A stretch of DNA of 64,000 nt from an uncultured bacterium. GTDB lineage: Bacteria; Krumholzibacteriota; Krumholzibacteriia; LZORAL124-64-63. Made by a program: the position numbers and the translations under genes. Positions 8,095 to 33,243 of this stretch are shown here, piece by piece (position 1 is the first letter of the stretch; every line of letters starts with the position of its first letter). The notes under the pieces are model-generated. The model searched no databases, was not told the origin of the DNA, and saw nothing but the letters and a program-made list of their open reading frames with translations. The stretch covers positions 928,001-992,000 of the forward strand of contig CAVSZB010000007.1 in NCBI GenBank assembly GCA_963732385.1, given 5' to 3'.

Positions 8095-8170
8095 TGGTGC
8101 GCCGCCGGGGACTCGAACCCCAAACCTACTGATTAAGAGTCAGTTGCTCTACCAGTTGAGCTAGCGGCGC
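8095..8170 (-). tRNA. tRNA-Lys(CTT)
   Basis: GCGCCGCTAGCTCAACTGGTAGAGCAACTGACT-CTT-AATCAGTAGG...GTTCGAGTCCCCGGCGGCGCACCA; 76 nt with CCA. Confidence 0.97.
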
Positions 8171-8231
8171 TCCTGAAAGGGGCGGGTGTGGCCGGCGGGG
8201 ATGCGGACTGCCATCCTCGCGGGGACCACGG

Positions 8232-8260
8232 AATTAAGCACGGTGGGGCGGCGTTGTCAA
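8232..8260 (-). promoter_or_regulatory. sigma70-type promoter of tRNA-Lys
   Basis: TTGACA-N17-TTAATT. Confidence 0.55.
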
Positions 8261-8291
8261 GGCGGAGAGTCCCTGGTCCGCGGGAGGCAAA

Positions 8292-8963
8292 ATGGCGGCA
8301 GATGGCGTGACGACGCCCCGGGTTCTGGACCTGGCGGCGCGCAGGCGCCGTGCGAAAAAGGTCGTGCGGGTGCTGCGGAAGGAGTTTCCGGAGGCTGCCT
8401 GCTCGCTGGATCATCAGGACCCGTTCCAGCTGCTGGTGGCGACCATCCTCTCGGCGCAGTGCACGGATGCGCGGGTCAATCTGGTGACGCCGGAGCTGTT
8501 CCGGCGGTTTCCGTCGCCACGCGATTTCGCGGCGGCGCCTCTGGCCAGGATCCAGGAGACGATACGGTCGACCGGGTTCTTCCACAACAAGGCGAAGGCG
8601 TTGCAGGGGTGCGCTCGCGCCTTGATCGAGCGGCATGGCGGGGAGGTGCCGCGCACGATGGACGAGTTACGGGTGCTGCCGGGGGTGGGGCGCAAGACGG
8701 CCAACGTGGTGCTCGGGGACGCATATGGGGCGCCGGAAGGGGTCGTGGTCGACACGCATGTGGGGCGGATCACGCGGAAGCTCGGGCTGACCGGGGAGCA
8801 GGATCCGGAGAAGGTCGAGCGGGATCTCAGCGGCTGTATCCCCCGCGCCGACTGGGTGGCGGTCGGGCATCTGCTGATCGAACATGGGCGACGGACCTGC
8901 CGGGCGCGGGCGCCGCGCTGCGACGGATGTCAGCTTTATGCGGAGTGTGAGACGCGGGGCTGA
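8292..8963 (+). CDS. nth: Endonuclease III
   Basis: LLVATILSAQCTD, HhH LPGVGRKTANVV, VVDTHV, C-terminal CRARAPRCDGCQLYAEC 4Fe-4S motif. Confidence 0.97.
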   Translation: MAADGVTTPRVLDLAARRRRAKKVVRVLRKEFPEAACSLDHQDPFQLLVATILSAQCTDARVNLVTPELFRRFPSPRDFAAAPLARIQETIRSTGFFHNKAKALQGCARALIERHGGEVPRTMDELRVLPGVGRKTANVVLGDAYGAPEGVVVDTHVGRITRKLGLTGEQDPEKVERDLSGCIPRADWVAVGHLLIEHGRRTCRARAPRCDGCQLYAECETRG

Positions 8964-9037
8964 CCGGCGCCGGGGTGAAAAGCGGCGCCGGCCTCGGGGG
9001 AGGCCGGCGCGCGTGCGTGAGGCAGGATCCGCGGCGG

Positions 9038-9526
9038 TCAGAACGGCAGGTCGTCGTCGTCCGAGCCGGGCGGAGGGGCCTGCGGGAAATCGCCTTCGTC
9101 GTCGGGATGGGGGGACGGGCCGCCGGGGCGCGGGCCGCGCTGGCCGCCACCGCTGCGCTCGGAGCGGCCACCGCCGCCGCCGCCCTCGCCCTCACCGGGG
9201 CGGCCGAGCATCTGCATGATGTTGGCCACGATCTCGGTGGTGTAGCGCTTGCCGCCCTCCTTGTCCTCCCACTGGCGGGTCTGGATGCGGCCCTCGACGT
9301 AGATCTGCTTGCCCTTCTTCAGGTACTGCCCGCAGATCTCGCCGAGCTTGCCCCAGGCCACGATGTTGTGCCACTCGGTGCGTTCCTGCTTGTTCCCTTC
9401 ACGGTCGGTCCAGACGTCGGTGGTGGCGATACGGAAGTTCGCCACCGCCTGGCTGTTCTGGGTGTAGCGCACCTCGGGGTCGGCCCCGAGGTTGCCAATG
9501 AGGATGACCTTGTTGACACTCGCCAT
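9038..9526 (-). CDS. ssb: Single-stranded DNA-binding protein
   Basis: [20 protein letters not shown], Gly-rich linker, DDDLPF tail. Confidence 0.98.
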
Positions 9527-9692
9527 CCCAACCTCCTGCGGCTGGGCGGCCGCTGGCCGCCCTGGTTCTTGATGGCCCGGTTGACCGGGCGCTCCCGGCG
9601 CGCAGCCCTGACCGCCACCCGGGCAGGGGAGGACACGGCGGCTGGGAGGAACGCCCCGATCGCGCGCGGAGATCGGGACGGGAGAAAAGCGG

Positions 9693-9769
9693 TGGGGTGG
9701 ATGATGGGACTCGAACCCACAACAACCGGGACCACAACCCGGGGCTCTGCCAGTTGAGCTACATCCACC
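9693..9769 (-). tRNA. tRNA-His(GTG), including G-1
   Basis: GGTGGATGTAGCTCAACTGGCAGAGCCCCGGGTT-GTG-GTCCCGG...GTTCGAGTCCCATCATCCACCCCA. Confidence 0.96.
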
Positions 9770-9785
9770 ACCGAAGTTGCATGTC

Positions 9786-9862
9786 TGGCGCGCCTGGCAG
9801 GACTCGAACCTGCGACCGTCGGATTAGAAATCCGATGCTCTATCCGACTGAGCTACAGGCGC
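9786..9862 (-). tRNA. tRNA-Arg(TCT)
   Basis: GCGCCTGTAGCTCAGTCGGATAGAGCATCGGATT-TCT-AATCCGA...GTTCGAGTCCTGCCAGGCGCGCCA. Confidence 0.96.
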
Positions 9863-9948
9863 AAGCTTACCCCGCCACAGCACGCGGGGAGCGCTATGAT
9901 GGCCCCGGTCGCGCGGCGTGTCAAGGGGCCCGCCGTCAACGGCGGAGG

Positions 9949-10025
<77 letters not shown>

Positions 10026-15699: not shown

Positions 15700-15785
15700 G
15701 CCCGGATGGCGGAATTGGTAGACGCGCTACGTTCAGGTCGTAGTGAGGAATCCTCGTGGGAGTTCGAGTCTCCCTCCGGGCACCA
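15700..15785 (+). tRNA. tRNA-Leu(CAG)
   Basis: GCCCGGATGGCGGAATTGGTAGACGCGCTACGTT-CAG-GTCGTAG, long variable arm, GTTCGAGTCTCCCTCCGGGCACCA. Confidence 0.96.
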
Positions 15786-25966: not shown

Positions 25967-27358
25967 TCACGACTCGTGGGCCATCCGCTCGCCGGGGTTG
26001 ACGAAGAAACGGTCCGTGGGATACGCGCGGAAATTGCTTACCCGGCTCGTGTAGATGCAGGCGAAGTTCTTGACCTGCGCGCCGAAACGGCTGGCCGCGC
26101 GGCCCTCCTTGAACAGCGATCCCCAGTATGGGTTGAAGCCGGCCGAGATCCGCCGCTGCAGGGCGCCCCGCCGCTGCAGCGCCTCGGCGACCTCCGCCTC
26201 GAGCGCCGCCGGCACCGCCGCCGCCGGACCGCCGCCGTTGCGCAACCGGTCCCGCTCCAGTTCCAGATCCTCGAGCCGCGCCTCGAGCTCCTCGAGGACG
26301 TGGATCTCCCCGCGCAGACGCCGCAGGGCGAGGACCTCCCGCTCGAGCTCGGGCACGATCATGGCGGTGCGCCAGCCGACCGATTTCTTGCTGCGCAGGA
26401 TGTCGCCGAAGGTGTGGTCGCCGAAGTAGAGGATCGCGTCACCGAAGGCGCCAAGTTTGGACTCCAGGAAGAAAGCGTCGCCGCCCACGTGGCAGTTGCC
26501 ATGCCGGTTGGCCAGCCCCGGCACCTGGTCGCGTGGCACGCCCCGCCCCTTCCCCTGCGGCACGAAGAAGTCCGGTTTGCGCGCCGAGCAGATCACGAGG
26601 TCGAAAATTTCGTCGAGCGGGGCCCCTTCGTCCTGCAGGAGGTGCCCCATCACCGCCGCCGTGTACTCCACCTCGGAATTCGTGAGCAGGAACAGCTGCT
26701 TGCCGGCCGCCTTGAAACGGCGCAGCGTCTCGCCGAGCCCGGGGTCGCGCACGAAGAAGCGGTCGAGGTCGGCCATGATCATCCGCTTGAGGGTGCCGTC
26801 GCGGTGGATCGTGTCGATCGCTTCGCGGATGTCGTTGAACAGGACGCGGTAACTCTGGCCCACCAGTTCGGGCCGTTCGTCCTTGAGCTTCACGAGGCCG
26901 ATGTAGAGACACCCCTCGGGCAGGTCGAACAGCGTGTCGAAGATGCGATAGCGGTCGGCGCCCAGCCGCAGGCGGCCGCGCTTGTAGACCTCGCGCCGCT
27001 CCTCGCGCGCCAGCGAGCGCGCCCCGTGCCGGACCCGCGACACGTAACCATAAGCGTCGGTCTTGAGGATGTTGCCGAGCCGCTTGTCGACCAGCAGTCC
27101 GCGCTGCACCTGTTCCGGTTCGTATCCGAGCCCGCGGATCACCTCGGGATAGCCCTTGCGGGTGACCAGCAGGTCGAGCGCGAGATCGAAGCAGAGGCGT
27201 TCGAATGTCGCGGCGTTGTAGAGCGCGAGAGTGTGATCCATGTCGAAGCCGATCGCGGTGATCGAGCTCATGCGCAGGTTGCGATTGACGTAGATCCGCA
27301 ATTCGGAAGGCGGCACGGTCACGTCCGGAGCGATCGCCCCGGGGGAATCGTCTGGCAT
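25967..27358 (-). CDS. HAD-superfamily cytosolic 5'-nucleotidase II (cN-II-like)
   Basis: IYVNRNL, IGFDMDHTLALY, FLLTNS, ARKPDFF, LYFGDHTFGDI, GWRTAMIVPEL, FNPYWGSLF, YTSRVSN. Confidence 0.92.
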   Translation of the reverse strand: MPDDSPGAIAPDVTVPPSELRIYVNRNLRMSSITAIGFDMDHTLALYNAATFERLCFDLALDLLVTRKGYPEVIRGLGYEPEQVQRGLLVDKRLGNILKTDAYGYVSRVRHGARSLAREERREVYKRGRLRLGADRYRIFDTLFDLPEGCLYIGLVKLKDERPELVGQSYRVLFNDIREAIDTIHRDGTLKRMIMADLDRFFVRDPGLGETLRRFKAAGKQLFLLTNSEVEYTAAVMGHLLQDEGAPLDEIFDLVICSARKPDFFVPQGKGRGVPRDQVPGLANRHGNCHVGGDAFFLESKLGAFGDAILYFGDHTFGDILRSKKSVGWRTAMIVPELEREVLALRRLRGEIHVLEELEARLEDLELERDRLRNGGGPAAAVPAALEAEVAEALQRRGALQRRISAGFNPYWGSLFKEGRAASRFGAQVKNFACIYTSRVSNFRAYPTDRFFVNPGERMAHES

Positions 27359-31075: not shown

Positions 31076-32167
31076 CTAGATCGTCACGCGGCGGCGCCGG
31101 CTGATCTCGCCGTGGTAGCGGAGACCGAGCGCGTCCAGTTCGTCCAGGATGCGTTCGATGAGACGAACCCGCGCGGCGAGCGGGAGGAATGCGCTCTTGA
31201 AACCGTTCATCACCAGGTTGACGATCTGCTCCGCCGTCAGGTCGAAGTGCTCCACGGCAAGCGCCAGCTCGTTGGTGACGGTGGTGCCCGAGACGAGTCG
31301 ATTGTCGGTATTGAGCGTGATGCGCAGCCCCGCGTCCAGATAGCGACGGATGGGATGGCTGCGCAGGTCCGGCACGGCGCGTGTCTGCAGGTTGCTGGCC
31401 AGACAGACCTCCACGGCGATGCGCCGGTCGTTGACCCACGCCATCAGGTCGGGATCCTCGATCAGGCGGGTGCCGTGGCCGATACGGTGCGCGCCACAGT
31501 AGTGGATCGCCTGGTGGATCGAGGCCGGTCCGAAGGCCTCGCCGGCATGGATGGTGACGTTGATGTTGTGATTGAGGATGAGATAGAACGCCTGGATGTG
31601 GTGCTTCGCCGGATAATCCTTCTCGGCGCCGGCCAGGTCGAACCCGACCACGCCGCGTCCTTTCCACCGTACCGCCAGCTCGGCGAGCCGGAACGACGAC
31701 TCCGGCGAAATATGCCGGATGCCACAGATGATCTGGCCGGTCATGATGCCGAAGCGCTGGCGCGCCCGGTCGAGCCCCTCCTGGACCGCGGCCACCACAT
31801 CGTCGGGCTGCAGGCCGTCATCGACATGCAGCAACGGCGAGTAGCGCACCTCCATGTAGCGGACATTCTCGCGGTGCGCGTCCTCGGCCAGCTCGAAGGC
31901 GATCCGCACGAGTTCGTCCCCCTGCTGCATCATGCGCAGCGTGATGTCGAAGACGCGCAGGTACTCCTCGAGGCTGCCGCAGTTCTGGTCCACCTCGCAG
32001 ACCCGGCGCACGTCCTCATCGGTGGCGAAGTCGAACGGCAGGCTGTGGAGGGCGGCCAGTTCGCGCACCGTGGACAGGCGCAGGGAGCCGTCGAGATGGA
32101 CGTGGAGATCGGTCTTGGGCAGCGCCCTCAGGAAAGCGATCCCGGGGCGCCCGACGGAATCGGTCAT
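31076..32167 (-). CDS. add: Adenosine deaminase
   Basis: PKTDLHVHLDGS, YMEVRYSP, GFDLAGAE, TIHAGE, RIGHG, LNTDN; GGAGG SD. Confidence 0.95.
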   Translation of the reverse strand: MTDSVGRPGIAFLRALPKTDLHVHLDGSLRLSTVRELAALHSLPFDFATDEDVRRVCEVDQNCGSLEEYLRVFDITLRMMQQGDELVRIAFELAEDAHRENVRYMEVRYSPLLHVDDGLQPDDVVAAVQEGLDRARQRFGIMTGQIICGIRHISPESSFRLAELAVRWKGRGVVGFDLAGAEKDYPAKHHIQAFYLILNHNINVTIHAGEAFGPASIHQAIHYCGAHRIGHGTRLIEDPDLMAWVNDRRIAVEVCLASNLQTRAVPDLRSHPIRRYLDAGLRITLNTDNRLVSGTTVTNELALAVEHFDLTAEQIVNLVMNGFKSAFLPLAARVRLIERILDELDALGLRYHGEISRRRRVTI

Positions 32168-32345
32168 GCGTACCTCCCGAGGGGACAAGAGATTGTCGAT
32201 GCGGTCGGTCTGACCCGGCTGGAGTGCGACTCAGCTCCCAGCCGCGCCGCGCCCGGCATCCGACCCGCGCCGCAGGCCGGAACACCCCGCATCGACAAAT
32301 CGGAGAAAACAGTGGCAGACGGCGATCGGCCCGTCTCCAGTACTT
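32168..32345 (-). ncRNA. Candidate structured cis-regulatory 5' leader of add
   Basis: Perfect 12-bp inverted repeat (32193-32204 / 32287-32298) enclosing two hairpins; lies between a sigma70-like promoter and the add SD. Confidence 0.45.
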
Positions 32346-32348
32346 TAG

Positions 32349-32377
32349 AGGATACAGGCTGGCGGCCGTCCCGGCAA
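32349..32377 (-). promoter_or_regulatory. sigma70-type promoter of add
   Basis: TTGCCG-N17-TATCCT on the minus strand. Confidence 0.5.
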
Positions 32378-32454
32378 GAGCGAGCGGTATTGGACAAGCC
32401 CGCGGCAGCGCGATATATTCAAGCGTCTCTACCTCACGATTGCCCGAAAGGAGC

Positions 32455-33243
32455 ATGTCCATGCCGCGGGTCTGGAAGCTCTTTGCGGCGGCAGCCTCGC
32501 TGCCTGCCGTGCTGTTGATCTTCGCCGTGCTGGCCGCCGACCGGGCAGTCGCACAGGAGCAGGCCGGCATTACCGGCGCCGTCGAAGACACGACCGTCGC
32601 CGCCGGCCCGGTTTCCGCCGACGCTCCGCCGGCAACCACGCGCCACAAGCACACCCATCTGCTCGCGGTTTCCGCGCACGGCGGCTGGCGAGTGCCGGTG
32701 CGCATCCTCAAGGAGAACAAGCGCAACATCAACGACATCATGTCGTCCAGCACCGGCTTCGATGCCGGTCTGCGCTGCTATCTCCTCGATGGTCTGGCCC
32801 TGGGAGCGCGGTACGCGCGCGGCGGGCTCGACCTGACGGACAACACCCTGGACCTGGCCCGCTTCAGCCTCACCGGCGACGAATATCTGAAACTCGACTG
32901 CTATACCGTCTGGTTTTCGGCGTATCTCGGCAACGCCCTGATGCCGGATTCCCGGTTCAACCCCTACCTGACGCTGAGCGCCAGCAAGTACGATTGGGCT
33001 TTCAACCGGGGGGGCCGTGACGGCGAAACGTACATCATCCTCGAAACGCCGGTTATGGGCAAGGATATCGGGGTGGCCGGAGGAATCGGCTGCGAGTACG
33101 CGCTCGGCAGCCGGCTCTGGCTGGAGACCGAGTGGATCTGGAACTACGTCTTCACCGAACTGGACCGCTCGGACGACGTCTTCAGCGTTTGGACCAACAC
33201 GCACTACTGGAATCTGGGCCTCGGGCTGGTCCTCGGTTTCTGA
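32455..33243 (+). CDS. Outer-membrane beta-barrel protein
   Basis: Signal peptide; FNPYLTL, GGIGCEY, C-terminal WNLGLGLVLGF; AGGAG SD; upstream TGGACA-N17-TATATT. Confidence 0.8.
   Translation: MSMPRVWKLFAAAASLPAVLLIFAVLAADRAVAQEQAGITGAVEDTTVAAGPVSADAPPATTRHKHTHLLAVSAHGGWRVPVRILKENKRNINDIMSSSTGFDAGLRCYLLDGLALGARYARGGLDLTDNTLDLARFSLTGDEYLKLDCYTVWFSAYLGNALMPDSRFNPYLTLSASKYDWAFNRGGRDGETYIILETPVMGKDIGVAGGIGCEYALGSRLWLETEWIWNYVFTELDRSDDVFSVWTNTHYWNLGLGLVLGF

Follow-up and report, generated by a model that had tools for sequence, protein, structure and literature searches.

Directly upstream of an adenosine deaminase gene (add), the genome of an uncultured bacterium of the class Krumholzibacteriia encodes a real structured RNA element, which apparently belongs to an RNA family that has not been described before and that has strong comparative support. 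Covariation among homologous sequences shows it to be a three-way junction, in which a stem, P1, closes the two hairpins P2 and P3. A sequence-only reading of a 64,000-nucleotide stretch of this genome (the window, by which we mean that whole stretch) had proposed a riboswitch-like leader that senses a purine or nucleoside. The structural half of that proposal stands, as an undescribed, conserved and covarying three-way junction with a probable loop-loop contact, while purine- or nucleoside-riboswitch function is unsupported. We consider a stand-alone RNA more likely than an add riboswitch, and give a probability of roughly one in two to the following reading: a structured, trans-acting RNA about 150 nt in length, which likely works together with a protein and whose promoter also reads into add in the family of the window.

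Parts of the element and its surroundings

The core of the element (32193-32298, minus strand) has a single copy in the window's genome (G000) by blastn, nhmmer and covariance model alike, so that a dispersed repeat or MITE is rejected. Much of what had been read from the letters is present (Table 1): the promoter is borne out as a sequence motif, the perfect 12-bp P1, a P3 hairpin at 32244-32216 and a 5' hairpin at 32336-32317 can all be found, and the gene that starts at 32167 is confirmed as an adenosine deaminase, likely co-transcribed with the element in this genome. Among relatives P0 varies in sequence and length, with hairpin-like leaders visible by eye 3' of the -10; we infer a likely role as stabilizer of the 5' end. 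One subgroup (L016, L022, L023, L028 and relatives) has a conserved P0, YUGWAAGGC...GCCUGWCAR, with apparent compensatory changes by eye.

Table 1. Features of the element and of the DNA next to it (window coordinates)
Feature	Position	Strand	Basis or remark
Sigma-70-type promoter-like motif, TTGCCG-17-TATCCT	32349..32377	-	Sequence; predicted start near 32343
P0, 5' hairpin directly behind the predicted start	32313..32339	-	Core pair probabilities 0.76-0.85
P1, 5' strand	32287..32298	-	Sequence, model-fitted alignment; core CGAUGCGG almost invariant
P1, 3' strand	32193..32204	-	Sequence, model-fitted alignment
P2 hairpin, comparative register	32255..32286	-	Folding and comparison; L2 segment UGCGGC at 32274-32269
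P3, long interrupted hairpin	32207..32254	-	Folding and covariation
L3 loop GAGUCGC, predicted partner of L2	32226..32232	-	Identical in 91/92 distinct homologs, a count conditioned by search patterns that required GAGYCGC
Short hairpin over the Shine-Dalgarno sequence GGGAGG	32173..32192	-	U-run or long terminator-like hairpin there in relatives
add, adenosine deaminase, 363 aa	31076..32167	-	TIGR01430 302 bits (cut-off 216.55); PF00962
Divergent promoter-like motif TGGACA-17-TATATT, outside the RNA	32391..32419	+	Precedes outer-membrane beta-barrel ORF 32458-33243

The beta-barrel ORF behind the divergent motif matches PF13505 slightly below the cut-off, and the motif, in its reverse complement TTGTCCA...ATATA, is shared by many members of the family. 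In the deaminase, NTDN takes the place of the NTDD of the mouse and Vibrio enzymes, so that its substrate may be other than adenosine; three further paralog matches to it occur in the genome. About 4 kb downstream of add lies a nucleoside-pathway gene, an HAD-IG family 5'-nucleotidase (25967-27358, minus strand); an operon of an ArsR-methyltransferase fusion and ahcY is found near add both in the window (35700-33328, minus strand) and at locus L419. In one genome of a second family (G075), which has no element at this locus, glcF-like, arsR, ahcY, lat and add genes are contiguous on one strand, a gene order that suggests an older SAH/adenosine-recycling cluster. Five tRNA genes are encoded elsewhere in the window (8098-10025, minus strand; 15700-15782, plus strand).

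Fold, covariation and loop contact

The 112-nt core folds with a z-score of -4.24, none of 200 shuffles being equally stable; the whole 201-nt region reaches only -1.55, and the median over 92 distinct homologs is -3.6. An alignment of 56 homologs, which is model-fitted and hence biased towards the model, has two-sided changes at 34 of 41 pairs and 90% of cells paired, as compared with 39-49% in slid controls. Without such fitting, a MAFFT alignment of 11 closer relatives shows two-sided changes at 10 of 46 pairs, 6 of them among the 13 pairs of P2. RNAalifold, given the raw alignment of all 27 sequences, recovers P1 alone because arm lengths vary. Compensatory changes in P1, P2 and P3 of homologs bear out the covariation that the earlier reading had left to comparison.

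Conservation is concentrated in two places. Among 38 diverse members, the columns that are at least 90% identical lie in P1, in L3 and at one basal P3 position; no column of the junction strands reaches 90% identity, and these strands differ in length and letters between subgroups. The first nine pairs of P1 are unpaired in just 1 of 504 cells (56 homologs, model-fitted), and GAGUCGC is also present in homologs found by the covariance model alone. Changes in P1 are mostly G-U wobbles, with two-sided changes at 4 of 10 pairs; such G-U tolerance on the minus strand points to pairing at the RNA level in the sense of add rather than to DNA operator sites. In one subgroup a possible -10-like GATAAT occurs at the 3' end of P1, at variable spacing. 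A rival pairing, between L3 and the 5' strand of P1, was rejected, as it comprises just 4 bp and has no two-sided change, and so was a small ORF, since core lengths of homologs take 22 different values between 96 and 122 nt and no frame is kept.

Comparison with the other two genomes of the same genus, G001 and G002, revises the arms. In both, just 3 of the 5 pairs of the P2 register first proposed, CCGGC/GCCGG, are retained, and the minimum-energy register (32286-32272 with 32268-32255) keeps 13 of 14 pairs in G002, with changes of G-U to A-U or G-C, and 11 of 14 in G001. The competing pairings that had been put forward as a possible switch turn out to be genus-specific, the GACAA/UUGUC hairpin being missing already in G001.

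The proposed kissing contact UGCGGC/GUCGCA fares better, with 6 of 6 pairs in all three genus genomes, although three distal P2 pairs must open to form it. UGCGGC is the L2 register of the window's genus; across homologs, the L2 region can be paired with L3 in more than one register, namely UGACUCG (7 pairs), UGGCU (5), UGCGGC (6) and CUCG (4). An L2-L3 score of at least 4 is reached by 90% of 92 homologs against 39% of 608 control windows, counts in which the sequences are not independent and the search window reaches into the P2 stem in some rows. No two-sided change supports the kiss in the alignments, one pair is lost in the only L3 variant, and pairing is poor in three genera. Taken as a whole, complementarity makes an L2-L3 kiss probable.

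Distribution, neighboring genes and predicted transcript boundaries

The element is present in 88 of the 91 genomes of the window's family, G000 included. An exact pattern finds it in 82 of the 90 other family genomes and the covariance model R2 adds 5 of the 8 negatives; 27 of 30 add-ortholog loci carry it. A second family (f6), which probably belongs to Ca. Krumholzibacteriia, has it in 8 of 10 genomes. Of the family genomes without it, G008 and G012 have kept both the promoter and add, with the promoter running straight into the gene, and in G022 the contig ends where add begins; G041 and G075, of the second family, lack it at the locus. In G008, G012, G041 and G075 (93-98% complete) it is absent at the add locus and was not found genome-wide, which indicates that it is dispensable in some lineages. 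Each genome has one copy except G173, which has two, both before add; these (L262, L263) comprise slightly different element and add sequences on separate contigs, and a mixed assembly is possible.

Seven further families of the class yielded nothing credible, with 42-85 candidates scored per genome; 45 of their 107 genomes were covered by the exact-pattern search only, and pattern matches in G183, G186 and G200 were left out. A scan of genomes gave at least 118 matches; among the matches listed, 14 score at least 45 bits and none of the remaining 104 more than 28 bits, and 5 of the 14 strong matches are labelled Ca. Krumholzibacteriia or Krumholzibacteria, the others carrying mixed or vague labels. 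Restriction of the element to the class Krumholzibacteriia is thereby indicated, among the matches listed. Chance-like pattern matches were all that 101 genomes from the phylum of a Gemmatimonadota-labelled genome provided, none of the 20 loci scored exceeding 18 bits. A metagenome scan gave 111 matches, 8 of them genuine; nine pattern matches in viral contigs were all rejected as chance.

Gene context was surveyed for 96 elements from 95 genomes. The next gene is add behind 87 of the 96 (84 of 89 in the window's family), and 92 have a sense gene within about 300 nt downstream. Within the window's family add lies approximately 19-208 nt behind P1, and its start falls within about 60 nt of P1 in 28 of 84 cases, which leaves no room for a second promoter. 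The few other arrangements are the informative ones. In G046 and G072, and likewise at the metagenome loci L357 and L285, the ORF that follows the element is a convergent TrkA-domain potassium-channel gene, which ends within about 40 nt; these elements are widely divergent (in L285 with a changed P1) and retain P1, L2 CCUCGUAU and L3 GAGUCGC. The gene for L-lysine 6-transaminase (lat) is next in G051, G070 and G071, and a squalene/phytoene-synthase-like gene in G019 and G131, whose relatives have that same gene behind add; in G006 a peptidoglycan-binding ORF is inserted behind the element.

No add ortholog was found in G019 (96% complete, 8 contigs), G131 (94%) or G070 (99%), where the best match stands at 48-49% or less as against 61-98% for add orthologs; their elements are intact, at 79, 82 and 31 bits with R2. 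The add-independent cases amount to about six genera and three metagenome loci, kin among them not being independent. Two candidates for this set, G017 and G136, were rejected because the convergent ORF resembles, by eye, the end of an insertion-sequence transposase at a contig break; the same transposase-like ORF end lies shortly behind the element in both (L061, L092), which represent two genera. Comparison of the homologs thus shows a near-invariant P1 and L3, and retention of the element where the gene downstream is a different one, is missing or points towards it. In no genome searched does the element precede another purine gene.

Upstream, TTG-16/19-TAnnnT occurs within 130 nt of P1 in 88 of 96 elements versus 0.4% of 3000 random windows, a rate obtained with an expression fitted to the hexamers seen here. 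Promoter-like motifs also precede the neighboring genes, either downstream of the element or separate from it, as consensus matches only: TGnTAnnnT before add in the second-family genomes G046, G051, G072, G056, G073 and G074 and also in G006 and G133, with a comparable motif before lat in G070, G071 and L382. Neighbors in the second family therefore appear, from these motifs, to have promoters of their own. In the window's family, 17 scanned intervals of at least 100 nt contain few separate add promoter-like motifs, which makes read-through likely. Between the element and lat in L102, L410 and L382, a second conserved motif, GGATCACAG...CTTGTG, overlaps promoter-like sequence and looks like a transcription-factor operator for lat.

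At the other end, at least four U in a row lie within 16 nt of P1 in 62 of 96 elements; in 24 more, P1 is directly followed by a hairpin of -23 to -35 kcal/mol with a short U tail. The remaining 10, which include the window's genus, have neither a U-run nor a strong hairpin, and no clear terminator follows P1 in the window's copy, G046, G072 or L357. In equilibrium folding, deletion of the post-P1 hairpin costs 15-25 kcal/mol (13 tested), and the Shine-Dalgarno sequence is not released when P1 is blocked, being mostly paired either way in all three genus genomes. The same approach, which does not capture kinetic switches, revealed no conserved, mutually exclusive expression platform. In four metatranscriptome runs (one study; contigs; a related strain), the genes and the promoter gap are covered alike, so that this coverage carries no information on transcription of the element.

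A stand-alone RNA or a leader of add

Several lines of evidence favor the reading as a stand-alone RNA. The element has a convergent potassium-channel gene, lat, squalene-synthase-like or peptidoglycan-binding genes for neighbors, and is kept in three genomes in which add was not found; add and lat can have promoter-like motifs of their own, and a U-run or hairpin follows P1 in most relatives. Conservation in P1 and L3, covariation, one copy per genome and the precedent of the raiA RNA, discussed below, argue for the same reading. Against it stand the position of add as the next gene in 87 of 96 cases, the lack of a clear terminator in the window's copy and the absence of the element from four genomes. 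Under a stand-alone reading, the RNA would be transcribed from the conserved upstream promoter, with the P0 hairpin protecting its 5' end, and its 3' end would fall just after P1, either at the U-run or hairpin that most relatives have or by trimming back to P1. The L2-L3 kiss would compact the molecule, P2 and P3 would serve as spacers of free sequence, and the fixed P1 helix and L3 loop would be recognized by a partner, most likely a protein. In the window's family, add would have come to lie directly behind the RNA, with probable read-through from the same promoter, so that in the window's genome the RNA would double as the leader of add; a secondary role in cis is possible in this family. 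Going further, we tentatively suggest, at odds well short of even, an undescribed housekeeping-like RNA of an uncultured class, a minimal three-way junction in which two long arms, clasped by their loops, offer a core cellular machine or protein an invariant helix and heptamer, and which came secondarily to lie in the leader of add, perhaps doubling in cis.

A new class of add riboswitch, with adenosine, inosine or a similar nucleoside as its ligand, is in our judgment unlikely. The ligand would stabilize P1 and so cause termination at the U-run or hairpin or, in the window's genus, hide the Shine-Dalgarno sequence, and the loci without add would be relics. Such a switch would account for the place of add right behind 84 of the 89 elements in the window's family, for the terminator-like or Shine-Dalgarno-covering hairpins after P1, and for the location of the element between promoter and add, in that G008 and G012, which lack it, have the promoter straight before the gene. 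The nearby ahcY would fit as well, as the product of this gene releases adenosine. However, the invariant nucleotides lie in P1 and L3 rather than in the junction, which is not conserved; equilibrium folding predicts no switching and no conserved on/off alternative, and leaves the Shine-Dalgarno sequence mostly paired in all three genus genomes whether P1 forms or not; and the element is intact at loci where add does not come next and in genomes where add was not found, including diverged copies with no sense gene behind them at all. A purine- or nucleoside-sensing function is further disfavored by the lack of any other purine gene behind the element in the genomes searched and of any Rfam riboswitch match.

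The proximity of a gene in the sense direction could instead mean a general leader in cis, a protein-binding attenuator or mRNA stabilizer for whichever gene follows, be it add, lat or squalene synthase. The promoter-like motif directly before the element in 88 of 96 cases and the sense gene within about 300 nt in 92 of 96 speak for such a leader, but a sense gene is missing behind four distinct copies, and lat and add have separate promoter-like motifs in the second family, so that we regard this as the least probable of the explanations considered. Only slightly less doubtful is a stand-alone RNA that acts by base pairing, with the invariant L3 as a seed for mRNAs, held by L2 until release. 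It shares the evidence for a stand-alone RNA given above, and a fixed L3 that L2 pairs with in at least four registers suggests a second L3 partner; a seed nonetheless leaves the fixed P1 sequence and the covarying, tertiary-type fold unexplained. The genome of the window has 58 sites for the 8-mer complement; its 16S-23S region contains no complement of L3, and there is no likeness to rRNA above shuffles. Mimicry of rRNA or antisense pairing with it was rejected, as 15 elements compared with the rRNA operon of G000 gave 2 of 60 comparisons with at most 1 of 40 shuffles as high, and a supposed likeness to 16S helix 42 came to nothing general above shuffles.

Among known single-copy RNA genes, 6S, SRP, RNase P and tmRNA have ends paired in a closing stem and fixed gene neighborhoods; each is encoded elsewhere in G000, and none matches the element. 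Bacterial Y RNAs (YrlA-type) are of similar size, with paired ends and a U-rich 3' tail; they were rejected for want of an Rfam match, and the TROVE/Ro60 domain PF05731 was not found in G000 (95.8% complete). Searches with Rfam 15, at gathering thresholds and at E-values up to 10, placed no family on the element in the window, the locus or 16 homolog loci, in agreement with the novelty first proposed for it; the purine riboswitch model RF00167 has no match at E-values up to 10 in the locus, the 16 homolog loci or G000. The layout of the purine riboswitch, a three-way junction with an L2-L3 contact (PMC8191784), resembles that of the element, in which covariation supports the junction and the contact is probable; like the Vibrio vulnificus add adenine riboswitch, the element lies before add. 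This likeness counts in favor of an add riboswitch. In contrast to that riboswitch, the element has much longer and variable P2 and P3, a junction that is not conserved and no tie to purine genes, and its kiss is a predicted helix of 4-7 bp, compared with two G-C pairs plus trans pairs. Nor is it found always upstream of, and in sense with, related genes, as a riboswitch would be, in view of its lat, squalene-synthase-like, peptidoglycan-binding and convergent neighbors.

The best functional analogy is raiA motif RNA (ModT, RF03072), which in the accounts cited here is, like the element, a single-copy structured RNA with a conserved closing P1, named after a neighboring gene. Potential 5' UTRs are where the raiA motif first came to notice, according to PMC5737381, and by the later accounts in PMC10861870 and PMC12968392 the RNA is a single-copy, abundant independent transcript that is reported to act, and to be rescued, in trans. 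The two differ in that raiA RNA, which belongs to Bacillota and Actinomycetota, comprises several junctions together with two pseudoknots, whereas the element has one junction; RF03072 has no match at the locus, and R2 none on the sense strand of a real raiA RNA. Literature searches brought up no description of the element. The lineage and an adenosine-deaminase motif go unmentioned in the main texts of PMC8632094, PMC11109978, PMC5737381 and two preprints (10.64898/2026.09.15.751765 and 10.64898/2026.10.21.760802), any of whose supplements could contain the motif.

Few highly structured bacterial RNAs of unknown function are known, and raiA, OLE and ROOL have become major structural and functional puzzles. 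With a small core of 96-122 nt, about 100 homologs and clear covariation, the present family is ready for in-vitro synthesis and probing, and either outcome would be useful, be it a new trans-acting RNA class of an uncultured lineage or a new nucleoside riboswitch. Our findings also demonstrate that a gene association as strong as 87 of 96 can mislead, and that the few rearranged genomes are the informative cases. If the housekeeping-like reading suggested above is true, the element would, in the window's family, be an RNA gene caught in transition between roles in trans and in cis.
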